A stretch of DNA of 64,000 bases from Candidatus Micrarchaeota archaeon. Its GTDB lineage: Archaea > Micrarchaeota > Micrarchaeia > Burarchaeales > JACRGF01. The position numbers were made by a program, and so were the translations under genes. Under the pieces are notes generated by a model that did no database searches, was not told the DNA's origin, and saw nothing but the letters and a program-made list of their open reading frames with translations. Below are positions 1,233 to 28,635 of this stretch, piece by piece; the stretch's first letter is position 1; each line of letters starts with the position of its first letter. The DNA is taken from the NCBI GenBank assembly GCA_016212395.1, contig JACRGF010000009.1, positions 28,132 through 92,131 on the forward strand. The letters run 5' to 3'.

Positions 1233-1264
1233 TTATCAATGCATGCGTCCAGCAGTTGATTTTT

Positions 1265-2299: not shown

Positions 2300-2312
2300 C
2301 GCGTAATCAAAT

Positions 2313-3035
2313 TCAAGGCGGAGGCAGTATCCCTTCCAGCATCCTGTTCGCCTTTCTGTAAGCGTCCATCGTCCCAACATCAAGCCAGTGCTTGGGATGG
2401 TAGACGAAGCCGGCGAGCTCGCCTTCCTCGGCAAGTTTCGGGAAAATAGTATTTTCTATCTTGATTTTTTTTGCAGGAATCATTTCAAGCACTTCTGGCT
2501 CGAGAATGAAATAACCTGCGTTCGCGAGGTTTGAAGGCGCGTCTTTTTTTTCAGGCTTTTCAACGAACCGAGTTATCCCGTTTCCTTTCACTTCAGCCAC
2601 TCCGAACCTCGGCACGTCTTCCCACGGGACTTTGAACAACGCGACTGTCGCAAGCTTTCCCTGCTTTTTGTGGAATGCGTGCATCTCCTCCATGTCAATG
2701 TTCGTCACATTGTCCCCGTAAGCAACAACAAGCGTTTCGTTCAAGTCCTTTTCGATTGCTATTGCTTTCAAGTCGCCTCCAGTCTCCCACCCGAGCGTTG
2801 CTATTGTCTCAAAATGCACGTGGTCGTGCGGAGTGTGCCTAATATACTCTTCAATCACTTCCCTCATGTGCGACACTGCAATAAACACGTGTGTTACATC
2901 CTTGCACGTCAAAATGTTTTCGCGCACGTAGTCTATCACAGGCTTTCCGCCCACTGGAAGCAAAGGCTTTGGAATAGCGTAAGTAAGCGGCCTCAACCTC
3001 GTTCCCTTTCCTGCAGCTAGAATTACTGCTTTCAT
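2313..3035 (-). CDS. Sugar-1-phosphate nucleotidyltransferase (NTP-transferase family)
   Basis: MKAVILAAGKGTRLRPLTYAIPKPLLPVGGKPVIDY is the canonical G-x-G-T-R-L nucleotidyltransferase signature. Start at the internal Met. Confidence 0.75.
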   Translation of the reverse strand: MKAVILAAGKGTRLRPLTYAIPKPLLPVGGKPVIDYVRENILTCKDVTHVFIAVSHMREVIEEYIRHTPHDHVHFETIATLGWETGGDLKAIAIEKDLNETLVVAYGDNVTNIDMEEMHAFHKKQGKLATVALFKVPWEDVPRFGVAEVKGNGITRFVEKPEKKDAPSNLANAGYFILEPEVLEMIPAKKIKIENTIFPKLAEEGELAGFVYHPKHWLDVGTMDAYRKANRMLEGILPPP

Positions 3036-3084
3036 GCAATTCATTCTGTTTGAAAAAAGATTTAAAACACTCGTCAAGCAAAGA

Positions 3085-4812
3085 ATGCGCATGGAATCGC
3101 GTGCATTGAAAGATGTTTTTGCTGACAAGCGTGTTTTGCTTTTGCTTGTTTTGCTTGCTGCCTTTCTCGCCCGCGTTTTCTACGCTGCAAACGCCGAGTT
3201 CGGAGCAGACGAAGTTAACTATTTCGCCCGTGCAATCAATTTTTTCTCCCTCCCCCACTTGTCCACCATTGACCACCCCTCTCTTTACTTCTACCTAATC
3301 GACTCTTCCTATAAATTGTTCGGGGGAGTAAACTGGCTTTCAGCGCGTTTTCCGGGAGTGCTGCTCGGAACGCTCTCCGTTCTGCTCATCTACTTGATTG
3401 GAGAAAAGCTGTTCACTCCGCGCGTCGGTCTTGCCTCCGCGTTTTTCTCAGCTTTCTCGTTTTTCCAGGCAAAATACTCTGGAATGGGCACTATAGACAC
3501 GTTTTCTGCTTTCTTCGCGTTGCTGTGCATCTACTTTTTTTCAAGGAGAAAAGAAAACTCGTCTTTTCTTGCAGCGAGCGGGCTCGCCTTAGGACTGGCA
3601 GCAATGTCCAAATACTCTGCATTATTCATCCTGCCCGCGCTCATTGCATGGGCGTTGCTTGAAGAACGCAAGATGTTCTTTGAGCGGAAAGCACTGCTCG
3701 GCGTGTTCTTCATCCTGTTGTTCCTTTCCCCTGCAGCCATCTACAACTTTCTGCTCTTCGAGAAGGAAGGCATTCTCGATTTTCAATTCACGCGCTTGTT
3801 CAAAACTTCGAATGAAAAATTCCAAAACCTCGCCGGAATAAACGAGGGGTTCGAGTTTGGAAAACTGCCGGGTGGAATCGCTTCAGTTTCAGTACTGTTC
3901 GCCTCTTTCTTTCCAATAATTTCCCTGCTCGCGCTTGCAGGAATTTTTTTCAAGCAGCATGATGCAAACCTTCGTTTCCTCGCAGCGTGCTTTTTATTTC
4001 CCTCCTTTTTCTTTGCAGGCATCGGGTTTCAATCCTTTTACTTTCAACTGGCCGTTCCCTTCCTCTTCCTGATAGCAGGAGTTGGGTTGAATGAAATTGC
4101 TGATTCGTCTTTAAAACAAAAAAATTCAACAACGCGCGCCTTGCTTCTTGTTCTTATTATTTTTGCCTGCGTTGAATTGCTTCTCGCGTCAAACGATTTT
4201 GCTGGTTTGGAAAAGAGCGCAACCCTGCAGTTGCGCGATTACGCGCGCAACATTCCTGAAAACGCGCTCGTTGTTGCAGACCACCGCATTTACTTGGGAC
4301 GAATGGCGTGGGCGCTTCACGACAAGCACTACATTTCAGTAGTAGACGACAAGTACCTGGCAATGGCTTTAGATTACCCCGGCACTCCAGAGCCAATCCG
4401 CATTTTCTTCGTAGAATGCACTAAAAAAGAATGCGGCTGGCGCAAAGGCCTGTTGAACGATTCAATCGCTCAAAGAAAGATAATGTCCATCTTCGAGTCT
4501 GCCGCAATATCCCAGCACGTTATTTTTGAAGACGGAAAGCCGGCTTACACTGTGAAAGACTTGGGCACGTTCATGTTCAAGCCAAACATTCTCGTAGCTG
4601 CGGACGCGACTCACTGGAATTACTTCTACCCCGTAGGCTGGAGGAATGAAGACGATTTTTACATTCGCGACTGCATCGACTGCTTCAAAGACCTTCAGCC
4701 TGAAAGAAAAGCGTTGCAGGACTTCGGCATGCTAATCGTTTACGCGGGAATTGCGAGTGCATTCGCATCTATCTTTTACTTGCTCGTAAAAATAGTCAAA
4801 TTTTTTGTTTAA
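3085..4812 (+). CDS. GT-C fold glycosyltransferase (PMT_2/ArnT-like, polyprenyl-phosphate-sugar dependent)
   Basis: About 11 TM segments. The N-terminal loop (EFGADEVNYFARAINFF) resembles the ArnT/PMT family. It sits in the glycosylation cluster. Confidence 0.55.
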   Translation: MRMESRALKDVFADKRVLLLLVLLAAFLARVFYAANAEFGADEVNYFARAINFFSLPHLSTIDHPSLYFYLIDSSYKLFGGVNWLSARFPGVLLGTLSVLLIYLIGEKLFTPRVGLASAFFSAFSFFQAKYSGMGTIDTFSAFFALLCIYFFSRRKENSSFLAASGLALGLAAMSKYSALFILPALIAWALLEERKMFFERKALLGVFFILLFLSPAAIYNFLLFEKEGILDFQFTRLFKTSNEKFQNLAGINEGFEFGKLPGGIASVSVLFASFFPIISLLALAGIFFKQHDANLRFLAACFLFPSFFFAGIGFQSFYFQLAVPFLFLIAGVGLNEIADSSLKQKNSTTRALLLVLIIFACVELLLASNDFAGLEKSATLQLRDYARNIPENALVVADHRIYLGRMAWALHDKHYISVVDDKYLAMALDYPGTPEPIRIFFVECTKKECGWRKGLLNDSIAQRKIMSIFESAAISQHVIFEDGKPAYTVKDLGTFMFKPNILVAADATHWNYFYPVGWRNEDDFYIRDCIDCFKDLQPERKALQDFGMLIVYAGIASAFASIFYLLVKIVKFFV

Positions 4813-5713
4813 ACCATTCTATTGTTTTCTTCAGCCCTTCGTCCAGCTCGACTTTCGGCTGCCAGCCTATTGCTTTTTTTATTTTTGTTATGTCCGGCTT
4901 TCGTTTTTTCGGGTCGTCTTGAGGCAAAGGCTTGAAAACAATTTCAGACTCTGATTTCGTCATCTGTTTTATTCTCTGCGCGAACTCGAGTATAGTGTGC
5001 TCTTCAGGATTCCCGGAGTTGAACGCTTCCCCTGAAAACTTCGAGTTCATCAGCTTCACGAGCGCTTCCACCTGGTCGCTCACAAAGCAAAAGCTTCTCG
5101 TTTGCTTTCCGTCTCCATACACTGTAATCGGTTCGCCTCGCAGCGCCTGGCCCACGAAATTCGGCACTACCCTGCCGTCATCAAGCCTCATTCTTGGGCC
5201 GTACGTGTTGAAAATCCTTGCAAGCACTACGTTCGCGAGCTTTTTAGAGTGGTAAGCGATGCACAATGCTTCAGCATACCTTTTCGCCTCGTCATAGCAC
5301 GAGCGAGGTCCTATCGGGTTCACGTTTCCAAAATACGTTTCAACCTGCGGGTGCACTTGCGGGTCCCCGTACACTTCGCTCGTTGAAGCGTGAAGCATGC
5401 GTGCGTTGTTCTTCCTCGCGCACTCTAAAACATTCTGCACTCCAACAGAACCTACTAACAGCGTTTCAACAGACAAGTTCCGGTAATCAACTGGGCTTGC
5501 AGGAGACGCGAGGTTGTACACCTGCTCGCACTTCACTTCAAATTGCTTCGTGACATCCTGCTTTACAAACTCGACGTTCGCAATCCCTTCAACGTTCTCC
5601 TTTCTTCCAGTAGAAAGATTGTCCACGCAAATTACTTTGTTCCCCTCGCCTGCAAGCCGTTCGCACAAATGAGAGCCAATAAAGCCCGCACCGCCAGTCA
5701 CTAAAATTTTCAC
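4796..5713 (-). CDS. uxs: UDP-glucuronate decarboxylase (UDP-xylose synthase, UXS-like)
   Basis: MKILVTGGAGFIGSHLCERL...VDNLSTGRKENVE...YDEAKRYAE is close to UXS1-type SDRs. It lies adjacent to ugd. Confidence 0.65.
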   Translation of the reverse strand: MKILVTGGAGFIGSHLCERLAGEGNKVICVDNLSTGRKENVEGIANVEFVKQDVTKQFEVKCEQVYNLASPASPVDYRNLSVETLLVGSVGVQNVLECARKNNARMLHASTSEVYGDPQVHPQVETYFGNVNPIGPRSCYDEAKRYAEALCIAYHSKKLANVVLARIFNTYGPRMRLDDGRVVPNFVGQALRGEPITVYGDGKQTRSFCFVSDQVEALVKLMNSKFSGEAFNSGNPEEHTILEFAQRIKQMTKSESEIVFKPLPQDDPKKRKPDITKIKKAIGWQPKVELDEGLKKTIEWFKQKI

Positions 5714-5791
5714 TCAACATCACCACACATTAAATAAACAAAAATGAACTCAGCGTGCATTTCTCATTTTTTTTTCTTCTTTCCCCTCTGC

Positions 5792-7111
5792 TTACTCGTT
5801 TTTCATTCCAACTCCGTAATACTTGAATCCGCTTGCCTTCGCTTTTTTTGCGTCTATAATTCTTCTCCCATCAACTATTACTGCCTGCTTCATCGTATTT
5901 TTTGCTTTCTGCAAGTCCATTTCTCCAAACTGCTTCCACTCTGTTACTACAAGCATTGCATCAGCGCCATTCACGCAATCGTACTCATCTTTCGCATACA
6001 CTATTCCTTTCAACGTTTTCTTTGCGTTCCCCATTGCTTCAGGGTCGAATGCAGTTACAATCGCTTTTTCTTCCAACAGCCAGTTGATTATGCGTATCGC
6101 CGGAGCTTCGCGAATGTCGTCAGTGTCAGGCTTGAACGCTATCCCAAGCACTGCAATCTTTTTCCCATTCAAATCCCCGAGCGCTTTCTTCAAGTAATCA
6201 ATCGCCTTCTTCGCCTGCTGCTTGTTCACTTTCACCACGCAGTCAAGCAGTTCAGGCTCGCAACCATTTTGTTTCGCAACATGCCTTAACGCGTCAACGT
6301 CTTTAGGAAAACACGAGCCCCCGTAACCCAACCCTGCATTAAGAAACTTCGGCCCAATTCTGCTGTCCAACCCTATTCCTTTCGCAACGTCAAGCACGTC
6401 TATCTCGAGCTTTTCGCAAACGTTCGCAATCTCGTTGATGAAACTGATTTTCGTCGCGAGGAAAGAGTTGCTTGCGTACTTAATCATTTCCGCAGTGCGC
6501 AAGTTCGTGCGCATTACTGAATGCTTTCCCTCGAAAGGCGCGTATAATTTCGCAACTATCCCAACATCCTTGTCGCTCAACCCGCCAATCACTACTCTGT
6601 CAGGCTCCATAAAATCTTTCACTGCGTTCCCTTCCCTTAAAAATTCCGGGTTCATCGCAACTCCAAAGCCCTCCCCTGCCTTTTTCCTGCTTTCCTTCTC
6701 CAAAATCGGAATAATCGACTCGCTCGTGCCAGGAGGCACAGTGCTCTTCACCACTACGACGTGGTACTCTTTTTTTCCAGCAATCGCCTTTCCTATTCCT
6801 TCAGCTGCTTTCCTAATGAACGACAAGTCGCTGCTCCCGTCTTCCTTAGGAGGAGTTCCTACACAAATAAAAGTAACTTCGCTTTCCAAAACTGCTTTCG
6901 CCAATTCAAGCGTTGCCTTCATCCTTCCAGCTCTCAAATTCTTTCCAATCAACTCTTCCAAGCCAGGCTCGAAAATAGGCGTTTTCCCAGCATTAATCGC
7001 ATCCACTTTCTCCTTCACAACATCAATGCACGTTACGCTGTTCCCGAGCTCGGCTAAGCACGTGCCAGTAACAACTCCCACATAGCCTGTTCCAATAACG
7101 CTTACCTTCAT
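5792..7111 (-). CDS. ugd: UDP-glucose 6-dehydrogenase
   Basis: MKVSVIGTGYVGVVTGTCLAELGNSVTCIDV and GGSCFPKD (catalytic Cys) are UDPGDH-family hallmarks. Confidence 0.85.
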   Translation of the reverse strand: MKVSVIGTGYVGVVTGTCLAELGNSVTCIDVVKEKVDAINAGKTPIFEPGLEELIGKNLRAGRMKATLELAKAVLESEVTFICVGTPPKEDGSSDLSFIRKAAEGIGKAIAGKKEYHVVVVKSTVPPGTSESIIPILEKESRKKAGEGFGVAMNPEFLREGNAVKDFMEPDRVVIGGLSDKDVGIVAKLYAPFEGKHSVMRTNLRTAEMIKYASNSFLATKISFINEIANVCEKLEIDVLDVAKGIGLDSRIGPKFLNAGLGYGGSCFPKDVDALRHVAKQNGCEPELLDCVVKVNKQQAKKAIDYLKKALGDLNGKKIAVLGIAFKPDTDDIREAPAIRIINWLLEEKAIVTAFDPEAMGNAKKTLKGIVYAKDEYDCVNGADAMLVVTEWKQFGEMDLQKAKNTMKQAVIVDGRRIIDAKKAKASGFKYYGVGMKNE

Positions 7112-7183
7112 GCTTCTACCTCTTCTGCTGAAAAATATACTACGACATTAATATTAATCAATTTATTTTGCCCATCAACATGC

Positions 7184-8167
7184 ATGAAAATTTCCTTCAT
7201 TATTCCAATTTTCAACGAGAAAGACATCATCCGCGAGTTTTTATCCCGCATGCTCGCGCAGTCACGCAAGCCTCTTGAACTCATTTTTGTGGACGAGTCG
7301 AAAGACGAAACCCCGAAAATAATCGAGGAATGCGCGAAAAAAAACCAGCACGTCCGCCTGTTTCACTTCGAAGAAAAAAAGGGCGTTTCTTTTTCAAAAA
7401 ATTACGGGGCAAAACAAGCGAGCGGAGACATCATAGTTTTCATGGATGCAGACATGTTTGCTGATGCAAACCTCGTTGAAGAAATAGAAAAAACGTTCAG
7501 CGACGAACGCATCCTGATGGCGAGCTGGAAGGATACAGGCGTCCAGCCGAAAACGTTCATTGCGAAATGCTATTTCGTGCGCGCGCGCTATTACGGGGAA
7601 ACGCGCAAGGACGTAAAGCAAGTTTACGCGCCACGCTGTTACCGCAAGAAAATATTCGAAAAATTCAACGGATTCGACGAGAAGCTAAAGTACTACGAAG
7701 ACGTGGAACTAGGCGAGAGAATTGCGAAAAGCGGGCTCGGATTTTCAAAAAAAGCTGCCAACGAAGAGCTTTCAAGCGGAAAAAGCGTTGCAGTAATAAA
7801 CGCTTTCGTAGCGCACGTTGACCCTGCGAGCTTCAAGGACTTTGAAAAGCAGAACGCGTGGCTCGGAGACAGCCTGAGCTTCAGGATCCTATGGGAGAAA
7901 AGAAAAGTACTGTTCAAGCCCCTCGGGCCAGCTTACTGGGCCCTGTTCTTCTCGCTCTTCGCATTAAGTTTTCTCCATTCCGCCTTCTTTTACGCTTTTC
8001 TCGCAATGCTCGCAAGCGTTTTATTCGAATTCACCCGATGCGTCGCAATAACCAAAACCATCCTTCCAAGCGCAGGCTTTATCGCTTTAAGCGCGCTGAA
8101 AGTGTTCATCACTGCATTCGCTTACGCAAAAAAACTGATTCTATTTCCATTCAAAAAGAAACAATAA
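7184..8167 (+). CDS. GT2 glycosyltransferase with C-terminal TM helices
   Basis: ISFIIPIFNEKDII...FVDESKDET...FMDADM is a GT-A fold with DxD. Hydrophobic C-terminus. Confidence 0.7.
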   Translation: MKISFIIPIFNEKDIIREFLSRMLAQSRKPLELIFVDESKDETPKIIEECAKKNQHVRLFHFEEKKGVSFSKNYGAKQASGDIIVFMDADMFADANLVEEIEKTFSDERILMASWKDTGVQPKTFIAKCYFVRARYYGETRKDVKQVYAPRCYRKKIFEKFNGFDEKLKYYEDVELGERIAKSGLGFSKKAANEELSSGKSVAVINAFVAHVDPASFKDFEKQNAWLGDSLSFRILWEKRKVLFKPLGPAYWALFFSLFALSFLHSAFFYAFLAMLASVLFEFTRCVAITKTILPSAGFIALSALKVFITAFAYAKKLILFPFKKKQ

Positions 8168-8225
8168 ATTGCGTGCGTGCACACGTTGCTTTCCACTCTT
8201 CTATTTCAAAAAAAATAATCGTCAA

Positions 8226-9704
8226 TTACTTCTTTTTTCTCACAAATCTAATAATCCTCTGCATTAATTGCTTATCCTCTTCATCAAGCAAAATCAAGTA
8301 GGCAACAGCAAACGCAAAAGGAGTTGCCGCGAGCAACACGAATGGGTTCACGTTCGCGCGCAGTTGAGACAACGCAACGGTAACCACCAGCGATATCGCG
8401 AGAGGTTTTACGACGTGCTTGCTGCTGATCTTTAGTTTAAGCAAGCAAGATGCAAGAACGAGCGACGCTATAGACACTGCTCCATACGCTACTACATACG
8501 TTATTGATGCCCCGAGAAACCCGAGTTTCGGAATGAGCGCAATGTTGAACACTATCATTAACAGCGACAGCGCGAGAGTCAGCACAGTAATTTTTTTCAC
8601 CATTGCCTTCGTGTAAAGCATGGTGGTGCTCACGTTCTGCACGAACACGAAGAATATCGCCAACGCAAAAAACTGGAGCGCCGGGACAGATTCAGCATAC
8701 CCTCTCGGGTAAATGCCCATTATTTCAGGAGCGAAGAAAACCAAGTAGAACGTGAGCGGGATGAGGAACATTGCCCCGTACTTCAGCATCCTGTCAAACA
8801 TTTTTGCCTGCACATCTCCGCGTTTTTTCGCCTCCATTTCGACAAAGAAAGAGTAGAGGAACGTTGTTGAAACAGGAATTGCCGCGAATATCGCGTTCAA
8901 AATCACTTGCGCTGCCCTGTAAAGCGCCACTTGCTCAGAGTTGCTGAAATAATTTATGAGCAAAATGTCGCTGTTCGAAAACAAGTAGCCAACGAACGCC
9001 GTGACTGCCGAATAAAACAGGAAATCGTCCACTGGCTTCGCATCCCCTTGTTTTTTCGCTTCAAGCTTTCCATTGAACAAATACAAAAATATTGCAAAAT
9101 AAACTGCAAGCGCCAGCACGAACGACAACGACACGCCAACAATCGCATTAAATGCGTTCGCTCCCATGAAATAAACCACTGCAAGCGGCACTGCCAGCTT
9201 CAATGCATTCAGGCAAAGCGACGAGAGCGAAACGAACTCGTACTTGTTCACCGCGGAAAACAAAAATCCAGCGTAATGCACGAACGTGTAAACGAACGCC
9301 GCCATTCCAATAAGCTGGAACACGAACACGAGCGACGCGTCGTGCAAAACAATTTCCGCAAGCTGGCTTGAAAAAACAAGCACGAGCGCGCAAACCACAA
9401 GCGACGCTGCAAGCTTTATTTTCAGCAGGTGCCAGAAGTAAAAACCTGCTTTTCCGTCTTTCGCGAAAAAACTCCTGCCGAAAAAACGAACGGCCGTCTG
9501 CTGAACGCCCACGTCAGACAAGTTTACTGCAAGCATAGCCAAGGCAACAAAAGTTGAAAGCAAACCGAATTCTTCCTTTGAAAGCAAGTGCGCAAACGCT
9601 ATCGTGAACGCAGCGCCGAACACTAGCACGAACGCCTGCGAGGAAACCGCGAAAAAATTCTGCTTCAAAACACGCTCAAGCATGACAAACGCTTTGCATG
9701 GCAC
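8226..9704 (-). CDS. MOP-superfamily polysaccharide/oligosaccharide flippase (Wzx-like)
   Basis: A 492-aa protein with about 12-14 TM segments throughout, in a glycan-cluster context. Confidence 0.6.
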   Translation of the reverse strand: MPCKAFVMLERVLKQNFFAVSSQAFVLVFGAAFTIAFAHLLSKEEFGLLSTFVALAMLAVNLSDVGVQQTAVRFFGRSFFAKDGKAGFYFWHLLKIKLAASLVVCALVLVFSSQLAEIVLHDASLVFVFQLIGMAAFVYTFVHYAGFLFSAVNKYEFVSLSSLCLNALKLAVPLAVVYFMGANAFNAIVGVSLSFVLALAVYFAIFLYLFNGKLEAKKQGDAKPVDDFLFYSAVTAFVGYLFSNSDILLINYFSNSEQVALYRAAQVILNAIFAAIPVSTTFLYSFFVEMEAKKRGDVQAKMFDRMLKYGAMFLIPLTFYLVFFAPEIMGIYPRGYAESVPALQFFALAIFFVFVQNVSTTMLYTKAMVKKITVLTLALSLLMIVFNIALIPKLGFLGASITYVVAYGAVSIASLVLASCLLKLKISSKHVVKPLAISLVVTVALSQLRANVNPFVLLAATPFAFAVAYLILLDEEDKQLMQRIIRFVRKKK

Positions 9705-9709
9705 TTATT

Positions 9710-10717
9710 TTATTCTTGCGTTTTCCGTTTCTTAATGAAAAGCGAGAGCAGCAAGCCTGTTCCAACCATGTACCAGAACGTGAGCAGCCTGCCGAGCAGC
9801 ACAGCGCTTACTGCAAGCTCTTTCTCTACTCCAACGCTCATCAAGAGAAAAGAGAACGAGAATTCCTGCGCGCCAGTTCCTCCGGGAAGAGTTGAAATCA
9901 AGCCCATGAGCGTTGCAAGCGAAATCGCGCCCATGCAAAACAACAACGGGTTGCTAACGCCTAACTTCGAGAGGTCTATTCCAATTGACTGGAACGCGAA
10001 AAAATAAACAAGCGCGCTGAAAAGCCAAATCAAAACAGTGAGCGCAAGAGGAAGAACAAACGCGCGCGACAATTTCAAGCCTTCAAACAATTGCGTTATC
10101 TTATCCAAATTTTTAGATGCAACACCCTCTATTCTGCCTGCTGGCTTTTTCATTTTTATTTTCTTCATCACTCCAACCGCGATTTCAATTGTTTTTCCAG
10201 CCACTTTCATGAACAGTTTCTCCATTCTCTTGCTTTGCGAGACTGCTACGAACGCTGCAACGAACAACGCGAAGAACACTACTGGCGCGTAGAAAACAGG
10301 CGAGTTCACGTACTGAAGCGAGAGGAGAGAAAACGAAACCACCACTATCATGTCGCCCAAGCGTTCGAGCATGTTTTTGCTGAACGTTTTCGTGAACGGA
10401 AAATTGTGCGTTGACTTCAAAATAAGCGCTTTCGTTGGCTCAGCAGCCCTTCCGGGAGTAACGTTCGCGAGCGCCACTCCGAACATTTGAATCGGAAGCA
10501 ACTCCAAGTAAGAAATTTTTCCAACATCAGCAAGCAACAGCTTGAAGCGAAGCACATGAATTAGAATAACGCACGTTGCAGCCGCCAACGCTAACAGCAC
10601 GTAATTTGCGTCAGCATTCTTCAAATTCTCGAGCAATTCCTGCGGGTTTGCGTACAAGACAAGCAACGCCAAAAGCCCAAAGCTGAACAGCATGACCGCA
10701 ATCTTCGTTTTATCCAA
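9710..10717 (-). CDS. Flippase-like / UPF0104 (lysyl-PG synthase TM-region-like) membrane protein
   Basis: A 335-aa polytopic membrane protein immediately downstream of the Wzx-like gene. Confidence 0.45.
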   Translation of the reverse strand: MDKTKIAVMLFSFGLLALLVLYANPQELLENLKNADANYVLLALAAATCVILIHVLRFKLLLADVGKISYLELLPIQMFGVALANVTPGRAAEPTKALILKSTHNFPFTKTFSKNMLERLGDMIVVVSFSLLSLQYVNSPVFYAPVVFFALFVAAFVAVSQSKRMEKLFMKVAGKTIEIAVGVMKKIKMKKPAGRIEGVASKNLDKITQLFEGLKLSRAFVLPLALTVLIWLFSALVYFFAFQSIGIDLSKLGVSNPLLFCMGAISLATLMGLISTLPGGTGAQEFSFSFLLMSVGVEKELAVSAVLLGRLLTFWYMVGTGLLLSLFIKKRKTQE

Positions 10718-10770
10718 TCAATCCACCGTCTAAATACATTTTTTATCTTTTGTTTTCAGAAACAATGTTT

Positions 10771-11694
10771 ATGAGCGTGCTGGTTACAGGCGGTGCAGGG
10801 TTTATTGCAAGCCACTTGGTTGACGTGCTTGTTTCGAAACAAAGCAATATTGTCGTTCTAGACGACTTGAGTTCAGGAAAAAAAGAAAACGTGAACAAGA
10901 AAGCAAAACTAATAGTGAAAGACATTGTCCGCGACGATATCGACAGCGCATTCAAAGGAGTTTCCACTGTTTTTCATTTTGCTGCAGACCCTCTAGTTAA
11001 AGAAAGTGCGGAAAACCCCGCGCACAGTTTCAACATCAACGTTTCCGGAACTTTCCGCGTGCTTGAAGCGTGCAGGAAGAACAACGTGAAGAAAATAGTT
11101 TTCGCTTCAACTTCAACTGTTTACGGCGACGCTGCAGTTATTCCAACTCCTGAAACTGCTTTGCTCGAGCCTGTAAGCAATTACGGCGCGAGCAAGCTCG
11201 CGAACGAAGCATACGTTTCCTCCTACTGCCACACTTACGGAATGCGCGGCGTTTCACTCCGCTTTGCGAATATTTTCGGCCCGCGAAGCACGCACGGAGT
11301 AATGAAAGACTTTTTCTTCAAGCTGAAAAAAAACGCGAAACAGCTTGAAATTCTCGGAGACGGAAAGCAGGACAAGAGCTACTTGTTCGTGAGCGACTGC
11401 ATTGAAGCGATTTTGCTTGCAAGCGAAAAAAGCGCGAAAGCATACTCTGCCTTCAACGTTGGAAGCTCTGACAAAATGAAAGTGCTTGAAGTTGCGAGAA
11501 TAGTTTGCGAAATAATGCGCGTTTCGCCAGACTTTTCTTTCACTGGAGGAAAGCGCGGGTGGGTTGGCGACGTTCCAGTAATGCTTCTTGACACGAAGAA
11601 AATTTGCGCGCTCGGCTGGAAGCAGAAAACAAGCTTCAAGCAAGGAGTAAAAAAATACGTCGAGTGGCTCAAGACTCTAACTGGTTTTGACTAG
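10771..11694 (+). CDS. NAD-dependent epimerase/dehydratase (UDP-sugar 4-epimerase-like)
   Basis: MSVLVTGGAGFIASHLVD...YGASKLANE matches the SDR family. Confidence 0.75.
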   Translation: MSVLVTGGAGFIASHLVDVLVSKQSNIVVLDDLSSGKKENVNKKAKLIVKDIVRDDIDSAFKGVSTVFHFAADPLVKESAENPAHSFNINVSGTFRVLEACRKNNVKKIVFASTSTVYGDAAVIPTPETALLEPVSNYGASKLANEAYVSSYCHTYGMRGVSLRFANIFGPRSTHGVMKDFFFKLKKNAKQLEILGDGKQDKSYLFVSDCIEAILLASEKSAKAYSAFNVGSSDKMKVLEVARIVCEIMRVSPDFSFTGGKRGWVGDVPVMLLDTKKICALGWKQKTSFKQGVKKYVEWLKTLTGFD

Positions 11695-11734
11695 TTTTGC
11701 TTCAAGACTATAGACTGAGGACTCAAGACTTTTT

Positions 11735-14527
11735 TCAATTTACTTGCGGCAACGGCTGCACATCCGCTGCTGTTTCGTCTTTCAGCTTGAATATTCTCAC
11801 TGCCGCGCTTGGGCCTTGCTGGTTGTAATTCGGGTAGACTTGCTCGAAGCCAGGAATTTCACCGAGGAAAAAGCCTTGGTAGAACATCGATTCGTAGTAC
11901 TCGCTTTTCGCGTCTTCCAACGCGTTGCTTCCGTCAATCCACTCTTTCGGGTACCACAATATATACTGGTCGAACGGCCTGCCCTCCAGCTCTTGCTCCC
12001 CGTACTTGAACATTGCAGCGCGGTTCACAGTCCCGTCTTGGTTGTACAACAGCATAATCGTGCCTCCAGTTGAATCCGTCGCTGCCCTCACGCAGTAATT
12101 CGTCCACGGAGGCGAGTAGCCGACAATTCCTTTCCCTCCGTCTTCAGTTTCGCAAAAGTCGTTCAACTGCGGAGTTTTTGGAATGAACACGCGCTCGTAC
12201 ATGTATTTTACAGTATCGCACTCGTCTTTCCCAGGCCCTATTTCGCATTTCGTCTCGTTGTTGCGGTAGCACGAGAGGTAAGTGAGCGCGCCCCATTTTC
12301 CAATCAAATCATAATCAAGAAGCAGGTACTTTGCTTTCGTCTGGCGCATAAACTTTGCCATTCCTTCCGGCGTGTTTGCAACCATCTTGTCCGCAACTTC
12401 CAAATCCATGTCCATGTGCGCGTGGTCGTTCCTCGTCACAGTCTTTTTTCTCCCGAAAAAGTTCGTCCAGTGGCCGTAATCCCACCAGTGAAGCACGCGC
12501 GCGTCATCCTCAACATTCTGCTCAATCCACTCCATTGGCTCGCTCCAGTAAGGCGGAATGCGGTTGCAGTAAATCTGGCGCGCCATCCCCTCAGTAGTCC
12601 CGCAGAACGTCATCAACTCGCCCCAATTGCTTCCATTCACGGAATTGTAATTTACTGCTGCAGAAAATATCGGAAGCATCAACGAAGACTGCAAAAGCAA
12701 GAAAACAAATGCAACCCCGGCAATAGAAACGAACGCAGACGTTTTGTCCTTTCTCACCACTGAATCAACTGCGAAAGCGCAAGCAGCCAGCGCGAGAATG
12801 CCTGTCGCAACTGCCAACGCAACATCAACACTCCACGAAACTCTCCCAGCAATATACAGCAACGCGAGCGCAAGCATTCCAACTGCCGCGTAGACAGCGT
12901 ACTGCTTCTCTTCGTTTTTCTTCGGATTTTCAAAGTATTCTTTCGCAAGCTGTTGTATTCCGCCAATGAAGGAAGCGAACGCGAGCACGAGCATGAACCC
13001 GAAGTGCACCAAGTATTTTATTTTGTTTATTCCAACGTACGAAATCGGGATTATCGCCACTGCGTACAATACTCCCACGCGCGAACCGTTCTTGATCGCG
13101 TACGCTAATGACGCGAGGCCTCCGAACAAGAACAAGTACAACGAGTTCACGCCCAACTCATTGATTGGAACGCTCAAGTAAACGAACGCGTTGTAAGTAA
13201 ACCCTGCAAGCCAGCCTCCTCCAGTCGCGCCTTCCTCTGCTACAGTCTGCGCCAGCCCGCAGTCAGGCTTCGCGTAGCCAACAGCCCTGCTCAATTGTTC
13301 TGCAAGCGTGCTTCCAACTGACGGAATAGGCCCAATCGCCGGCATTAAAAGGAACACGAGCCCGACAACTGCGAGCGCGATAAAGTAATTCAGTTTCTCT
13401 TCAAGTTTTTTCGTCTTTTCTGAAATCAAGTAAAGCGCGCAAGCTCCAGCGAGCGCGCCAGCCATTGGAAACAATTCTGTGGGAATAGTAAACTGAATTC
13501 CTGACGGCGAGTACGCCATCAACCCGTACTCTCCGACAATCGCTCCGAACAGCACTATCGCGTTCACTTCAATAAACTGTTTCGACATTTTCCCGTTGAA
13601 ATAATCAATTACTGCCTGCACTCCAACATAACCTGCGAACACGAGGTACGCGAGAATTTGCGCCTTCGAGCCCAAGCTTACTGACGCGAGCGCTACTGCA
13701 GCAAGCACTGCAAACCTCCTGCTCTCGTGCTTTACAGCATGCGCGTACGCAGCGTAGAAAAAGAACGCGGCGAAAATGCCCCAAGGCAATTGTTCTGAAA
13801 CTCCAGCGAGAAACTTTTCCATCAACTGCGGAGTGAAAGCCACCAACCCCGCAGCGATCAAGCCTATCTCGCGCCTGTACTCAAGCGCCACCAATTCAAA
13901 CATCAGAAAACACAAAAGCGCGCCAACAAGCGGCGGGTAAGCTGCAGCCACTGTTGACAACAGCATGTGATCGTACGCGCCGCCCTGCGCGTAAATCGAA
14001 TACCATTGGCTCGTCAAGTACGCTATTAAAGGCGGGTTCCTGTGCGAGTCCCGGTGAGGATACCACGCCAAATCGTCGTACCTCAATACTTCCCCCTTCG
14101 TCAGAATCTGCTCTTGCATCACGTCATAATAATACGGGTCGAACTCGTAGTAAGTAGCGCTCAAGCTCTGAATGCGAATGAAAAACGCGAGCGCCATTAT
14201 AACTGTAAGCACAATCCAAACCCCGTCGCGCTTCAACTCGAACGAAGGCTTCACTTCCACTTTTTCTTTCGCGCTCAAAGCAATTCCCGCAAGCGTCAAA
14301 GCGAGCGAAACTCCAATCGCCACGTCAAAAGAATATTTTACTCCGAAGAAGGACAGAAACCACAACGCGAGCGGAGGAATAATCAACCCAAGCATGAACC
14401 CGTAGCAAATTATTTGGAAGAACGAGAGGTTGGTTCTCTTCAGCAACGGAAGCGCGAGCGCCAAGCCAGGAACGAGCGTAAACAAAAATATGGGCACGCC
14501 TGCAGCAACAAAATCAATGAAAGCCAC
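11735..14527 (-). CDS. aglB: Archaeal oligosaccharyltransferase AglB (STT3)
   Basis: A 930-aa multi-TM N-terminal half with the WWDYGHW catalytic motif and a large C-terminal soluble domain. Confidence 0.9.
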   Translation of the reverse strand: MAFIDFVAAGVPIFLFTLVPGLALALPLLKRTNLSFFQIICYGFMLGLIIPPLALWFLSFFGVKYSFDVAIGVSLALTLAGIALSAKEKVEVKPSFELKRDGVWIVLTVIMALAFFIRIQSLSATYYEFDPYYYDVMQEQILTKGEVLRYDDLAWYPHRDSHRNPPLIAYLTSQWYSIYAQGGAYDHMLLSTVAAAYPPLVGALLCFLMFELVALEYRREIGLIAAGLVAFTPQLMEKFLAGVSEQLPWGIFAAFFFYAAYAHAVKHESRRFAVLAAVALASVSLGSKAQILAYLVFAGYVGVQAVIDYFNGKMSKQFIEVNAIVLFGAIVGEYGLMAYSPSGIQFTIPTELFPMAGALAGACALYLISEKTKKLEEKLNYFIALAVVGLVFLLMPAIGPIPSVGSTLAEQLSRAVGYAKPDCGLAQTVAEEGATGGGWLAGFTYNAFVYLSVPINELGVNSLYLFLFGGLASLAYAIKNGSRVGVLYAVAIIPISYVGINKIKYLVHFGFMLVLAFASFIGGIQQLAKEYFENPKKNEEKQYAVYAAVGMLALALLYIAGRVSWSVDVALAVATGILALAACAFAVDSVVRKDKTSAFVSIAGVAFVFLLLQSSLMLPIFSAAVNYNSVNGSNWGELMTFCGTTEGMARQIYCNRIPPYWSEPMEWIEQNVEDDARVLHWWDYGHWTNFFGRKKTVTRNDHAHMDMDLEVADKMVANTPEGMAKFMRQTKAKYLLLDYDLIGKWGALTYLSCYRNNETKCEIGPGKDECDTVKYMYERVFIPKTPQLNDFCETEDGGKGIVGYSPPWTNYCVRAATDSTGGTIMLLYNQDGTVNRAAMFKYGEQELEGRPFDQYILWYPKEWIDGSNALEDAKSEYYESMFYQGFFLGEIPGFEQVYPNYNQQGPSAAVRIFKLKDETAADVQPLPQVN

Positions 14528-14603: not shown

Positions 14604-15716
14604 ATGCTAGACCTAATTATTTCCGGCGCAGGCCCTGCAGGCTGCCTTGCAGCCAAAACAGCATGCGAGCAAGGCGCAAGCGCTAGCATTTTCGAAGAAC
14701 ACGCGCGAATAGGCGTGCCCACCCAATGCTCAGGCTTAGTTTCAAAAACCGGGCTTGACGCGCTCGGCATCGATTATTCGAGTGCAGTGGTAAACGAATT
14801 GAACGGAGCAAACGTCTACTGCCTGGACAATTGCCTGCACGTGAAAGCAAAAGAAACCAAAGCAATTCTCTTGGACAGGAAAAAATTCGACGAAATTTGC
14901 GCGCAAGAAGCCGAGAAAGCAGGAGCGAAAATAAAGTTGGGAAAAAGACTGAAGAAAAACGACTTGATTTCATCCGCACGCAACTCGACAATCATCGGGG
15001 CAGACGGCGCTTACTCCAGTGTTGCTGGCGCGTTCAATTTCCCAAAAATAAACTCATGGGCCTCGTGCTTCCAGTCTTTCTTCGAGCGCGCGCAAATCGA
15101 AGACAAGAAAAGCGTTTCAATCGTTTTTTCAAGCGAACTATTCCCCGGCTTCTTTGGGTGGGTGATTCCTGAAAACGAGGAATCCTGCAGAGTAGGGTTC
15201 GGGGCAAACCCTAAACAAAACAAGTGCGACATGAAAACAACCTTCCGCGCTTTCCTTGAAACAAAGCGCGTGAAAGAAATAATCCCAAAAGCAAAAATGG
15301 TTTCTTTCCACGGCGGGGTCATCCCTCTTGAAACGCGAAAGCAAACAGTGAAAAAAAACGTTTTGCTCGCAGGCGACGCTGCAGGCCAAGTGAAAGCAAC
15401 TACCGGCGGAGGCATTTTCTTCGGATGTTCGTGCGCAAAAATTGCAGGCGAACTCGCTGCAACAGGCAAGGCAAGCGAGTACGAACACGCATGGAGAAAA
15501 CAATTCGAAAAAGACTTGAAAACACACGCGAACATCCGGAAATTCCTCAACTCTTCAAGCGACAACGCGCTCGCAAACTACTTCAAGCTCGCGAAAATGT
15601 TCGGAGCGGAAAAGTTTCTCAGCGACCACGGAGAAATGGACTTGCTTGGAGGAATGCTTGAAAAAATGCGCGCCAGCCCTTTCAGCGCCCTAACCAAAAC
15701 ATTTAACGTCTTTTAA
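14604..15716 (+). CDS. Geranylgeranyl reductase family FAD-dependent oxidoreductase (digeranylgeranylglycerophospholipid reductase-like)
   Basis: MLDLIISGAGPAGCLAAKTA GxGxxG FAD motif. A 370-aa protein of the GGR family. Confidence 0.75.
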   Translation: MLDLIISGAGPAGCLAAKTACEQGASASIFEEHARIGVPTQCSGLVSKTGLDALGIDYSSAVVNELNGANVYCLDNCLHVKAKETKAILLDRKKFDEICAQEAEKAGAKIKLGKRLKKNDLISSARNSTIIGADGAYSSVAGAFNFPKINSWASCFQSFFERAQIEDKKSVSIVFSSELFPGFFGWVIPENEESCRVGFGANPKQNKCDMKTTFRAFLETKRVKEIIPKAKMVSFHGGVIPLETRKQTVKKNVLLAGDAAGQVKATTGGGIFFGCSCAKIAGELAATGKASEYEHAWRKQFEKDLKTHANIRKFLNSSSDNALANYFKLAKMFGAEKFLSDHGEMDLLGGMLEKMRASPFSALTKTFNVF

Positions 15717-15849
15717 GCAAACATTACTTCAGATGGTTTGAATGGTTCCAAAACACATTCTAATAACGCCTGACGGAATCTATATTCGCTGGTAATCCGC
15801 GTCTATAACCTTAAACAGGCGGTGGGCCAAGCTTAACGGCAAGACTGCC

Positions 15850-16470
15850 TTGGAAGGTCACGCCATAGGCATTGAGAAAATAAAAGAGGTAGTCGGCTGG
15901 TGCCGTGACGCCGGCGTGCGCGAGCTTTCTTTGTGGGGCTTTTCCACCGAGAACTTCGACCGCGACCCTGCAGAAGTAATCGGCTTGATGAAACTATTCG
16001 AAACTAAATTGAGCGAGCTTCTCTCAAGCGAAGAACTGAAAAAGCACGAAGTGCGCGTCCGCTTTTTCGGAGACTTGGAACGCATTCCCCCGCCAGTTCG
16101 AGCGTACTTGAAGAAAGTGGAAGACGCTACAAAATCAAACGGAGAATACAATCTCAACATTCTCTTGAGCTACGGAGGCAGGCCCGAGCTCATCTCAGCA
16201 TGCAACAAAATTCTCGACGCTGCAAAGCGCGGAGAAGTAAAAAAAATAGACGAAAGCAACTTCCAAACGTTCTTGTGGACAAGCGAATTGAGCGAGCCTG
16301 ACTTGGTAGTCCGCACTTCAGGAGAGCAGAGAACGTCCGGAGTGCTTCCATGGCAGGCTGCCTACGCTGAACTATACTTCTGCGAAAAACTGTGGCCAGA
16401 CTTTTCAAAAGAAGACTTTGAAAAAATACTGAAAGAATTCGACAGGCGCGAAAGGCGGTTCGGAAAATGA
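15850..16470 (+). CDS. uppS: Di-trans,poly-cis polyprenyl diphosphate synthase (UppS/cis-prenyltransferase), C-terminal major segment
   Basis: The ORF has a TTG start and lacks the conserved N-terminal segment, which is encoded upstream (see finding). GHAIG...LWGFSTENFDR...RTSGEQRTSG are cis-IPPS hallmarks. Confidence 0.8.
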   Translation: MEGHAIGIEKIKEVVGWCRDAGVRELSLWGFSTENFDRDPAEVIGLMKLFETKLSELLSSEELKKHEVRVRFFGDLERIPPPVRAYLKKVEDATKSNGEYNLNILLSYGGRPELISACNKILDAAKRGEVKKIDESNFQTFLWTSELSEPDLVVRTSGEQRTSGVLPWQAAYAELYFCEKLWPDFSKEDFEKILKEFDRRERRFGK

Positions 16471-26109: not shown

Positions 26110-26394
26110 CTACCCGTGCTTTATTTTGAGGTACAGCAAGGCGATTACTGTTGCGAGCGTGAGCGCGTTCGCAATTATTATTGGCACATCGTTTTTCATC
26201 AGCCCGTAAGCAAGCCAAAACACTACGCCTATTCCGAGCACTATCACCATTTCAAGCGAAACGTCGCGCGTTGACTTTGTCTTGAATGCTTTCCACACTT
26301 GCGGAAGCAAAGCTGCAGTAGTGAACGCTCCAGCAACTAACCCTATTTCTTCAACCACCATAAAACAAGCCTTTTTTACTTCTTCAAAGCCCAC
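26110..26394 (-). CDS. SemiSWEET (PQ-loop/MtN3 single-repeat sugar transporter)
   Basis: A 94-aa protein with 3 TM helices and a PQ motif in TM1 (ALLPQVWKAF). Confidence 0.65.
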   Translation of the reverse strand: MGFEEVKKACFMVVEEIGLVAGAFTTAALLPQVWKAFKTKSTRDVSLEMVIVLGIGVVFWLAYGLMKNDVPIIIANALTLATVIALLYLKIKHG

Positions 26395-27047
26395 GCGAGC
26401 GAGCGCCCCAGCAACTTCGAGTACTCGAACGCTCCAGAAACAATGCCTGTCTTTGAACTCGATTTCTCCTTAATATCATAATTAACAGTCACTGGTGCTT
26501 GCGCTACTACCAATCCTTTCTCCACAGCGTTGAAAATCATTTCAACATCAGCAATAAAACCCTTATGCTCAAAATCCAGCTTGCTTTTCCTGAACGCGCG
26601 GAACCCGCACAAAGGATCGTTCACTTTCGTCTTTGCTTTCAACACAGAGCGAATCAAGTTGTTCGCAACGCTCCTGTGCACAGGCAGTTTCACAGACTTT
26701 GCAAACCTGTCGCCCACAACCAAGTCTGCTTTATCCAAAGCTTTCACCAACGCGTAAACTTCTTCAGCGTCATGCTGGTTGTCAGCATCCATCAAAACTA
26801 TCTTGTCTGTTTCCGAAGCAGCCACTCCGCTCTTCATAGCTGCGCCTTTCCCTTTGTTCACTAAATGCCTTACTACTTTAAAGCCAAAGCGCTTTGCTAT
26901 TTTTCCAGTCCTGTCCGTAGAACCGTCGTCAACAACAACAACGCGCGCGTTCATCCTCTTCAGCTTCTCGCACAACGGAGTCAAGTTCTCCGCTTCATTG
27001 TAAGCAGGAACAACTATAGTAACATCCTGAAGCAAAGCCGCGCCCAT
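26376..27047 (-). CDS. GT2 glycosyltransferase, dolichol-phosphate sugar synthase (Dpm1-like)
   Basis: VTIVVPAYNEAENL...VVVDDGSTDRT...MDADNQHD. Start set at the internal Met. The ORF extends to 27422, and that stretch includes a 155-nt out-of-frame overlap with truD that is probably not coding. Confidence 0.65.
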   Translation of the reverse strand: MGAALLQDVTIVVPAYNEAENLTPLCEKLKRMNARVVVVDDGSTDRTGKIAKRFGFKVVRHLVNKGKGAAMKSGVAASETDKIVLMDADNQHDAEEVYALVKALDKADLVVGDRFAKSVKLPVHRSVANNLIRSVLKAKTKVNDPLCGFRAFRKSKLDFEHKGFIADVEMIFNAVEKGLVVAQAPVTVNYDIKEKSSSKTGIVSGAFEYSKLLGRSLAWALKK

Positions 27048-27267
27048 CTTGCTCGTAGCTTCAGACACGTACGCGTCACCACTCGGAAGCTGAGCCTTGT
27101 TCGTCTCGTTCAACTCGCGAAAACGCTCGTCAAACAAAACATTCCCGCCAAAACACTCCTCTTCGTTATTCTCGCAAGAATGAACAACCCTCTTCCTCGC
27201 CTTCCTGTGAGTTTTAGCAACCGCCTTTCCCTTCCTCTTCTTAACCAAAACAAACCACCTGAAAACG

Positions 27268-28635
27268 CTATACTGTTGTTCGACGTTGTTTAAAACCGTT
27301 TGCCTTCTCGTCGGTAAACTCGTCCAGCAGCACGGTCGCGTAACAGCCTGCTTGAAGAGTAAAGCACAAACGAACAACGCCTGCATTATTTGCTTGTTCG
27401 CCTGCCACTCGCTCGCTTTCAAAATTTTCGAACTGCGCGAGAAGCAATCGCTCGCTTCCCTTCGAGCCTATTTCAGGGAAAGAAGGAATTTTGAACGCTT
27501 CAACTTCCACTCCCTCGCGCTCAAGCACTTTCTTCTCGCGCTCGCTCAAATTAGTCGTTTCACTGCCAATAAGCTTTCCGTAAACAAAAGAATATTCTTG
27601 CTTTTCGCTTTCAATCACGTCAACCTTATTTTCCACTCTTTCCCCTTCTTCTGCTTCTACTTTTTTCCTTCCATCTCTCTTCATTTCTTTTATTCTCTCG
27701 CTCAACAGTTCATTAAACAAGAATGACTGGTAGGCGTGCACGAACATCAAGTTCAACCCGCGGGGAAGCTTGCGCATTGCATTAACGTAATCGTTCGAAT
27801 GCTGTGCCAAGTGCGCGAGCAGAGTGCGCTCGTACTTCAAATGCATGGGGAAATAGTTGAGCGCAGCGCCGAAATCACGTTCTAACTTCAATCTTTTCCT
27901 CGCTTCAACAGCCCCCACTGTTTCCTCTTCTTCTCCTGAGTACGTTAAATAGTTTTCAACTGCTTCCTTGAAGTTTCCTTGAACTACTGCCCTTCCAACC
28001 AAGTGCGTGTTGCTCCGCATGCTCCCGAACCTCTGCTCTCCAAAGTAATTCGGGAAAAAGCCATTCAACTCTTCATTAATTTTCTTCACTTTTTCTTCCG
28101 CGTTCTCGCACACGCCCCTAACTGCAATTTTGAACCGGTTTCCCTTCAAGTCGCCTAAATCTATTTTCCGCTGCGCCTTCCAGCACCCGTTTATTTGAAT
28201 GTCCTTCACTTTTACTGAAGCAAGCCTGGCGCAGTCCAGTTTGAACGCGCTCACCAACTGCGTCGTGACAGCGCGCCTGTCCTTGCTTCCAGCGTAATTA
28301 AACCTCTTCTTCGTAACGTGCAACGCGCGCGCGACAGCGTCTATAGCCTGCAACGTGTTCCAGTTCGTCTTCTGCAACACAAAATGAACAAAATCAAAAT
28401 CTTCACTCTCACGCTCTGCAACTTGAACGTTCTCTCCACTGCTCCCGCTCGTCGTTTCCCCTACCACTTCAACTCGAGCATTCCCGCACTCGCTTTCTCC
28501 AACTTCACGCGTTATTTTCTCCCCAATCCGCAACACAGTGCCGTCCTTCATTACTTCCTCTACCTCAAAATCATCTATCCTCTCTTTTATTCTCCCGCCA
28601 ATCCCGCTCGTTTCAGACAAATACTCAAGCTGCAT
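27268..28635 (-). CDS. truD: tRNA pseudouridine synthase TruD/Pus7 family
   Basis: The conserved TruD block NYAGSKDRRAVTTQ contains the catalytic Asp. Confidence 0.75.
   Translation of the reverse strand: MQLEYLSETSGIGGRIKERIDDFEVEEVMKDGTVLRIGEKITREVGESECGNARVEVVGETTSGSSGENVQVAERESEDFDFVHFVLQKTNWNTLQAIDAVARALHVTKKRFNYAGSKDRRAVTTQLVSAFKLDCARLASVKVKDIQINGCWKAQRKIDLGDLKGNRFKIAVRGVCENAEEKVKKINEELNGFFPNYFGEQRFGSMRSNTHLVGRAVVQGNFKEAVENYLTYSGEEEETVGAVEARKRLKLERDFGAALNYFPMHLKYERTLLAHLAQHSNDYVNAMRKLPRGLNLMFVHAYQSFLFNELLSERIKEMKRDGRKKVEAEEGERVENKVDVIESEKQEYSFVYGKLIGSETTNLSEREKKVLEREGVEVEAFKIPSFPEIGSKGSERLLLAQFENFESERVAGEQANNAGVVRLCFTLQAGCYATVLLDEFTDEKANGFKQRRTTV

Follow-up and report, generated by a model that had tools for sequence, protein, structure and literature searches.

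A probable bulge-helix-bulge intron within the catalytic motif of uppS in Candidatus Micrarchaeota

The stretch of DNA analysed here, referred to as the window, comprises 64,000 nucleotides (nt) of contig JACRGF010000009.1 (positions 28,132 to 92,131) and is assigned by protein search to Candidatus Micrarchaeota (DPANN). It carries uppS, a gene that encodes a cis-prenyltransferase, the synthase of the dolichol/polyprenyl-phosphate carrier, and whose reading frame is interrupted inside the DGNRRW catalytic motif. The gene lies directly downstream of a geranylgeranyl-reductase-like (GGR) gene (14604-15716) and of a divergently oriented gene for a 930-residue AglB/STT3 oligosaccharyltransferase. 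Its ATG (15742-15744) is found 25 nt past the end of the reductase open reading frame (ORF), whose stop codon ends at 15716; a preliminary description made from the sequence alone had picked the same ATG but placed it about 27 nt after the stop. The codons up to 15777 read MVPKHILITPDG and are followed by twelve in-frame codons (15778-15813; ATC TAT ATT CGC TGG TAA TCC GCG TCT ATA ACC TTA), beyond which the gene resumes as AAC AGG CGG TGG GCC (NRRWAKLNGKTALEGHAIG) and stays open until its stop at 16468-16470. The coordinates of the elements discussed below are collected in Table 1.

The preliminary description had proposed that a stop-containing insert of about 36 nt breaks the frame within DGNRRW, and had left open whether the lesion is an in-frame stop or a frameshift. 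The insert is confirmed and measures exactly 36 nt, and the interruption is an in-frame TAA, not a frameshift. Since A residues are repeated at both borders, the 36 nt can be deleted as 15777-15812, 15778-15813 or 15779-15814 with an identical product. Removal restores the textbook motif, as had been predicted, in a protein of 230 amino acids (aa) that matches the Pfam Prenyltransf profile PF01255 over its full length (positions 3-219 of 219, E = 2.3e-73) and aligns with the solved UPPS structures in the PDB ungapped through DG|N. The residues P-D-G-N-R-R are invariant in 118 of 118 uninterrupted homologs. The 32-mer across the predicted spliced junction is CTAATAACGCCTGACGGAAACAGGCGGTGGGC.

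Public gene calls routinely miss the 5' part of such genes. The window uppS is represented by P0001, which NCBI names di-trans,poly-cis-decaprenylcistransferase, and the calls for intron-bearing genes P0001, P0004, P0105 and P0122-P0124 comprise 206, 184, 184, 190, 179 and 179 aa, respectively, all being N-truncated and devoid of the catalytic motif. An assembly or sequencing artefact that inserted the 36 nt has a negligible chance of being the explanation. Metagenome-assembled genomes can hold chimeric junctions, but nothing specific supports one here, whereas a second assembly (L001, Logan SRR12113395) contains the identical 36 nt. As that assembly possibly derives from the same biological sample as the window, the match makes the insert independent of the assembler, not necessarily of the sample. 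Moreover, NCBI, ENA, JGI and Logan data contain another 22 loci with homologous inserts.

Alignment with close relatives, which had been suggested as a check, reveals no relative that carries the same inserted codons as coding sequence; each has either no insert or a different one, stop-containing or frame-shifting, at this place. Uninterrupted uppS genes of exactly 230 aa are found in the closest relatives, L002 (protein identity 80%) and L003/L004 (75%); they read CCTGATGGAAACCGG and CCAGACGGAAATCGT in L002 and L003, with the exon-1 peptide conserved as MVPKHILIIPDG and MVLKHVLIIPDG. The window shares with L002 and L003/L004 the gene order AglB, GGR, UppS, DUF192, secretion ATPase and PALP. 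The more distant L005 (60% identity) contains, at the identical place, a different insert of 30 nt with an in-frame TAA.

Altogether, 14 distinct inserts were found at the exact DG|N codon junction in 24 loci, with lengths of 20, 20, 20, 20, 21, 23, 30, 32, 33, 36, 37, 37, 40 and 41 nt and with interiors mutually unrelated in sequence. Metagenome and genome collections were scanned for P-D-G codons followed, after a gap of 20-50 nt, by N-R-R-W codons. The metagenome scan returned 29 loci, three of which are genuine uppS (L024; L027 = L029), and the genome scan returned 72, including seven labelled Micrarchaeota that are all genuine interrupted uppS genes (L036, L039, L046, L052, L079, L081 and L083). 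Pattern-independent additions came from truncated members of the protein cluster (L108-L110) and from the neighbours of an endonuclease family described below (L111, L112/L113, L114 and L115/L116). Conceptual splicing yields a full-length enzyme of 228-239 aa ending in RR(F/Y)GK in every case, the start codon of L115 being ambiguous. Ten of the 14 inserts are not a multiple of three in length and the four that are in frame all contain a stop codon, so that a model in which the insert is translated or read through is inapplicable to the family. A blastn-short search with five of the intron sequences against all collected sequences retrieved no further copies, and hence no link to tRNA introns or repeats. 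L108, from a strain within the L079-type species, has an IS605 OrfB/Cas12f-like (TnpB) gene inserted between uppS and DUF192 (2554-3780); L109 and L110 lack this gene but are otherwise collinear.

A single register of the bulge-helix-bulge (BHB) motif fits all 14 variants. The four-base-pair central helix is fully paired in eight of them, three of four positions pair in three (window, L005 and L115), and two of four in another three (L024, L111 and L114). The 91 non-uppS chance hits of the scans serve as a matched negative control because the same outer helix was imposed on them; their central helices contain 0, 1, 2, 3 and 4 pairs in 16, 39, 25, 11 and 0 cases. In the 14-row alignment, standard pairs occupy 83.5% of the cells, compared with 33-46% after a shift of the 3' partners by 1-3 columns, and the covariation score is 0.288 against 0.140 in shuffled alignments (0 of 500). 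Both helices flanking the bulges covary across the variants. One outer-helix pair occurs as CCU...AGG (U-A) in 11 rows and as CCG...CGG (G-C) in three, all three pattern-independent, with zero mismatches; a central-helix pair occurs as GAC (C-G) in ten and as GAU (U-A) in three. Both compensatory changes are especially clean, as they are made through synonymous codons for Pro, Asp and Arg.

Most variants additionally form a distal exon-exon helix, CCAUC/GAUGG, between the Ala-Ile codons and AGA-UGG; the window lacks it and has two extra G-C pairs in its proximal helix instead. The second Arg codon is AGA in most intron-bearing alleles (e.g. L036 and L111; alignment A2, columns 4-8 with 69-73), completing the distal helix, and is CGT, CGT and CGC in the intron-less genes of L107 (652-720), L002 and L003. 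This suggests that synonymous codon choice at this Arg is constrained by the splicing structure.

An independent check of the cut sites is supplied by L115, whose insert measures 23 nt and whose 3' bulge is AGA. In most variants several placements of the deletion are equivalent owing to the repeated A residues, whereas in L115 the placements give PDGD, PDGD, PDGN and PDGI; the invariant Asn results solely from the canonical BHB cuts, UA|U and AG|A. The canonical cuts produce PDGNRR in all 14 variants and the DGNRRW motif in the window. The L115 host is labelled Aenigmatarchaeota; its UppS, in which the motif reads DGNRRYA, shares only 35-39% identity with the others, and no canonical start was found for its exon 1 (region 3420-3520) within about 55 open codons upstream.

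These data also bear on programmed translational bypassing, one of the three readings that the preliminary description had left unranked. The skipped gap of gene 60 in phage T4 is flanked by take-off and landing codons that match; here the ribosome would take off at the Gly codon, skip the 36 nt and land before AAC. In favour of it are a stop codon shortly downstream of the take-off region and the hairpin formed within the gap, and in L005 a hop is formally possible, as Gly is encoded both by GGU ahead of the gap and by GGA, the last gap codon. However, L005 is the only variant that matches: the two codons are GGA and UUA in the window and GGA and GUA in the 20-nt class. The conserved feature is not a take-off and landing pair but the BHB itself, with its 3-nt bulges and a central helix covarying with the Asp codon. 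Ten of the 14 homologous inserts shift the frame, and the correct amino acid in L115 arises only from the BHB cut positions. We therefore consider bypassing very improbable.

The interrupted genes retain the signature of a functional enzyme. Pairs of them give nonsynonymous-to-synonymous substitution ratios (dN/dS) of 0.037-0.079, at dS from 0.36 to about 2.5 or saturation, which is indistinguishable from the 0.057 of the intron-less pair L002/L003. Exon 1 (12-22 codons) retains the start codon and a (K/R)H(I/V)AIIPDG peptide, with mostly synonymous differences, and the downstream ORF is intact over 213-218 codons. A metagenomic scaffold, L107, is 95% identical at the nucleotide level to L079 over 1.5 kb that include both flanking genes, lacks exactly the 20 nt, and encodes a 228-aa protein identical to spliced L079. 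Near-conspecific genomes are in this case polymorphic for the presence of the insert at the predicted junction.

It had also been considered that the window gene has suffered a recent inactivating lesion, or that only the annotated 206-aa fragment initiated at the TTG is made. The in-frame TAA inside the catalytic motif and the public call starting at the TTG are compatible with this view, but it hardly merits credence given that at least 14 lineages have an interruption at this junction, with exon 1 and the downstream ORF preserved. The low dN/dS of the interrupted genes and the identical protein encoded by the intron-minus allele L107 argue against a pseudogene, and a truncated product would have lost the residues that are invariant in all of the uninterrupted homologs. 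In a neighbour-joining tree, the 20-21-nt class forms one clade (69-91% identity), consistent with vertical inheritance. The nearest neighbours of the window, L005, L024, L027 and L083 are intron-less, at 70-80% identity each, implying that the intron was repeatedly gained or lost.

In the window, the two 3-nt bulges on opposite strands and the central helix between them constitute a relaxed BHB motif. Three of the four central positions pair (A15773-U15812, G15775-C15810 and G15776-C15809) and C15774.U15811 is a mismatch, while both flanking helices, h and h', are present in the minimum free energy (MFE) structure. The complementary arms cgcctg and caggcg, recognised from the start, are real and form helix h. 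Canonical cuts, after the second nucleotide of each bulge, remove 15779-15814 and join GGA A|AC AGG. The junction GACGGA|AACAGG given in the preliminary description is correct as a sequence; the canonical endonuclease cut falls one base to the right (GACGGAA|ACAGG), with the same product.

Table 1. Positions of uppS elements, of the predicted RNA structure and of the associated endonuclease genes (window coordinates unless a locus is named).
Feature	Coordinates	Strand	Description
uppS exon 1	15742..15778	+	12 codons (MVPKHILITPDG) and the first A of the Asn codon; canonical 5' cut after A15778
Proposed BHB intron, 36 nt	15779..15814	+	removal restores DGNRRW
In-frame TAA within the intron	15793..15795	+	ends translation of unspliced mRNA after 17 codons
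uppS exon 2	15815..16470	+	AC of the Asn codon to the stop; 218 codons
TTG, false start of gene callers	15850..15852	+	206-aa N-truncated public protein P0001, without the catalytic motif
Outer exon-exon helix h, 5' strand (CGCCUG)	15767..15772	+	pairs with 15816-15821; in MFE structure
Outer helix h, 3' strand (CAGGCG)	15816..15821	+	from Asn/Arg/Arg codons; 6 bp
Central helix, 5' strand (exon ACGG)	15773..15776	+	pairs with intron CCUU 15809-15812
Central helix, 3' strand (CCUU)	15809..15812	+	last four intron bases ahead of the 3' bulge
5' bulge, 3 nt (AAU)	15777..15779	+	predicted cleavage A15778/U15779; register drawn by hand and checked by script
3' bulge, 3 nt (AAA)	15813..15815	+	predicted cleavage A15814/A15815
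Inner intron hairpin h'	15780..15808	+	UAUA/UAUA, CGC/GCG, GG/CC, loop UAAU; -7.0 kcal/mol alone
LAGLIDADG_3 family genes	L005 1586-2557; L111 159-1193; L112 2501-3457 (= L113); L114 1142-2227; L115 2501-3475 (= L116 1934-2908)		

Several observations weigh against an intron removed through this structure. The window motif is among the weaker ones: its central helix contains the C.U mismatch, and the inner helix has a C.A at its base. Its BHB conformer has a predicted energy of -15.3 kcal/mol, 2.4 kcal/mol above the MFE of -17.7, the MFE fold leaves the central region as an open 8x8 loop, and the fold z-score of the region is only -1.05. BHB-like geometries at relaxed thresholds number about 1,450 per 64 kb on both strands, equally in shuffled sequence. 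The DNA patterns that retrieved most variants fix CCTG...AAACAGG, so that the rows in question are biased. No spliced transcript came to light; of the exact spliced proteins, a collection of 15 billion proteins contains only P0121, which is a DNA allele, and a Pfam scan of about 58 ORFs detected neither EndA nor RtcB encoded in the 64-kb window.

Because of the z-score, and because the BHB conformer is not the MFE structure, single-sequence thermodynamics was set aside as evidence. Since the relaxed geometry is common in shuffled sequence, the window motif alone is not significant, and the argument therefore rests on its coincidence with the protein-defined borders and on the comparative data. 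The chance rate of the geometry is about 8e-5 per specified position pair, and the improbable part is that it falls exactly on borders set independently by protein alignment and recurs in 14 lineages. With respect to retrieval bias, the pattern-independent rows (window, L005 and L108-L116) agree with the pattern-retrieved ones. The single match in the exact look-up of eight spliced proteins is a genomic intron-minus allele rather than a transcript. A BHB scan of the whole window for further introns gave as many hits in real as in shuffled sequence, with 146 ORF-fusing candidates that are mostly ordinary gene boundaries, and was dropped as uninformative without protein homology. The Pfam scan of the window ORFs found no second split gene; a methyltransferase fragment (129-518) is cut by the window edge.

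Another possibility is that the insert is removed from RNA or DNA by a machinery other than EndA (a ribozyme, a protein or an excising mobile element), the BHB-like fold being incidental. The central helix is indeed imperfect in six of the 14 variants and the proximal outer helix of L114 has only 3 bp. Introns of group I or II, however, are far longer than these inserts of 20-41 nt, and the variants have no target-site duplications or terminal repeats in common. What they conserve is exactly what defines a substrate of EndA, and the product is the one expected from the canonical cut rule. Such a mechanism is unlikely, and nothing in the data calls for one. A self-splicing group I or II intron was rejected, the 36 nt being set against a ribozyme core of hundreds of nucleotides; Rfam found no family at the gathering threshold in the whole window. 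An intein, which would be in frame, free of stops and equipped with splicing domains and with Cys, Ser or Thr at +1, was likewise rejected, since the inserts measure 20-41 nt, each of them shifts the frame or includes a stop, and Asn occupies position +1.

Taken together, we assign a probability of roughly 0.87 to the reading that the 36 nt are an archaeal BHB intron inside the coding sequence of a micrarchaeal uppS. Splicing of the mRNA is what the comparative data point to, in favour of the mini-intron among the readings first suggested. In the pre-mRNA, the two outer exon strands would pair with each other and the exon ACGG with the last bases of the intron ahead of its 3' bulge, while the intron interior would fold as a hairpin, leaving the two bulges on opposite strands. 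The tRNA-splicing endonuclease EndA would then cut after the second base of each bulge and an RtcB-type ligase would join the exons as GAC GGA | AAC AGG, encoding PDGNRRW in an active enzyme of 230 aa. The intron would be released, probably as a small circle. Unspliced mRNA would give only a peptide of 17 residues owing to the TAA. The intron may have no function beyond being tolerated, or it might shield the site from a homing endonuclease.

The assignment of cutting and joining to EndA and a ligase is based on published work on Ca. Micrarchaeum (ARMAN-2), whose epsilon2 EndA cuts BHB motifs of the strict as well as the relaxed kind and in which 56% of the tRNA genes are disrupted (PMC3239211). 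ARAGORN detected no intron-containing tRNA in the window and 13 loci, so those contigs lend no support for a splicing activity of their own.

The uppS intron joins a known but very rare kind, for which the crenarchaeal cbf5 intron is the sole coding-sequence precedent found. The BHB intron in the pre-mRNA of cbf5, encoding the aCBF5 pseudouridine synthase, was described in Crenarchaeota (Watanabe et al. 2002; Yoshinari et al. 2006; Yokobori et al. 2009, PMC2738675), is the only coding-sequence case named in a 2020 study (PMC7714728), and is the only one cited in the reference list of a 2025 article (PMC12397907). In the searchable literature, where coverage of subscription journals is partial, we found no earlier report of BHB introns in DPANN protein genes. 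The two share a short coding-sequence intron with a BHB motif at the exon-intron borders, a patchy distribution with gain and loss among relatives, and hosts with a broad-specificity endonuclease. Removal of the cbf5 intron by the tRNA-splicing endonuclease was shown experimentally, whereas splicing of uppS is deduced from comparison. Other differences lie in the gene, the phylum (DPANN Micrarchaeota) and the enzyme, epsilon2 rather than (alpha-beta)2. The uppS intron moreover splits the diphosphate-binding catalytic motif 12 codons after the start and is adjoined in some relatives by a free-standing LAGLIDADG gene.

The non-canonical tRNA introns of Ca. Micrarchaeum acidiphilum (ARMAN-2) (Fujishima et al. 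2011, PMC3239211; PMC12397907) come from the same lineage and are similarly short, with strict hBHBh' or relaxed motifs. The substrates tested there had introns of 13-25 nt at many positions and EndA cut both motif kinds (PMC3239211); they were tRNAs with their mature-domain context, in contrast to the mRNA considered here. The BHB intron in the 5' untranslated region of Haloferax volcanii HVO_1309 (Schwarz et al. 2020, PMC7714728) is an mRNA substrate of an archaeal splicing endonuclease, confirmed in vitro, but it is found in a euryarchaeal host and in an untranslated leader, where no frame is broken. Another parallel, mentioned in PMC13149111, is the unconventional splicing of HAC1/XBP1 mRNA in eukaryotes, in which a protein endonuclease reads a small RNA structure in a coding mRNA and a tRNA ligase rejoins the exons, altering product or frame. 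That system (IRE1 with RtcB or Trl1) employs the nuclease IRE1 on twin stem-loops and is stress-regulated, whereas the uppS case offers no evidence of regulation.

A second coding-sequence case would extend mRNA splicing by the tRNA machinery beyond Crenarchaeota, to another phylum, another endonuclease architecture and the catalytic motif of an essential enzyme. The 14 natural variants, spanning 20-41 nt, provide a ready-made mutational series for the epsilon2 endonuclease. The N-truncated annotation of uppS would make DPANN genomes look deficient in dolichol/polyprenyl-phosphate synthesis. In addition, the LAGLIDADG neighbour and the presence/absence polymorphism at 95% identity make the mobility of an archaeal intron directly testable.

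The LAGLIDADG neighbour was encountered in L005, where an ORF of 323 aa with LAGLIDADG_3/Hom_end similarity lies between the reductase gene and uppS. Its family is small, with 15 proteins at E <= 1e-5 among 5.8 billion, and in all five distinct contexts examined the endonuclease gene is directly 5' of an interrupted uppS, the other neighbours being different. A tblastn search with the L005 endonuclease against the first 15 uppS loci had matched none beyond L005; the association surfaced through the protein-family search. The endonuclease ORF is in frame with uppS exon 1 and reads through it in L111 (1140-1193) and L114 (2054-2227), with its stop inside the mini-intron in L111 and beyond it in L114; in L005, L112 and L115 the ORF and exon 1 are in different frames, overlapping or adjoining each other. 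Comparison of the Micrarchaeota with the divergent L115 host gives an identity of 35-38% for UppS and of 49-53% for the endonuclease; this stronger conservation of the endonuclease hints at lateral movement. A second LAGLIDADG-like ORF is present at L115 1-622. The window has no such gene upstream of uppS, only the 25 nt that separate it from GGR, and it gave no tblastn match to the L005 endonuclease.

A tentative and rather doubtful explanation of the intron's origin is collaborative homing. The free-standing endonuclease would target the highly conserved DNA encoding IIPDGNRRW (in intron-less uppS of L107 or L002, around ATCATCCCTGATGGAAACAGGCGTTGG), and the BHB mini-intron would split this target and thereby immunise its carrier. 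Both elements might have spread, together or separately, among Micrarchaeota and to at least one genome labelled Aenigmatarchaeota, and the window intron would have lost its partner or never had one. As the window lacks the endonuclease gene, this idea bears on where the intron came from and not on its splicing. A comparable arrangement is cyanophage psbA, in which F-CphI accompanies an ORF-less group I intron (Zeng et al. 2009, as outlined in PMC6083498): a free-standing endonuclease stands beside an intron-split conserved segment, as it does in five relatives of the window but not in the window itself. Unlike that system, uppS would involve a BHB intron and a LAGLIDADG endonuclease in archaeal cells rather than phages, and cleavage of the intron-less gene is here a supposition.

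Around uppS, a dense glycosylation cluster is distributed over window positions 1-14527, 26376-27422 and 62487-63998. It contains GT2 glycosyltransferases, sugar epimerases and dehydratases, a UDP-glucose dehydrogenase, a PMT_2 family protein, a flippase-like Polysacc_synt protein and the 930-aa AglB, and is consistent with a need for the lipid carrier made by UppS. Further downstream, at 41338-43645, a fragment of an AbiEii-like nucleotidyltransferase toxin (profile positions 3-149 of 238 only) adjoins an N6/N4 DNA methylase (41979-43016) and a convergent MjaI-type restriction endonuclease (43010-43645), the group being a small defence island in a DPANN genome. At 34643-37084, the window encodes a LonB-type protease of 813 aa, in which about 150 residues (about 218-375) between the AAA+ motifs have no Pfam match; this stretch is presumably the known membrane-anchor insertion of archaeal LonB.

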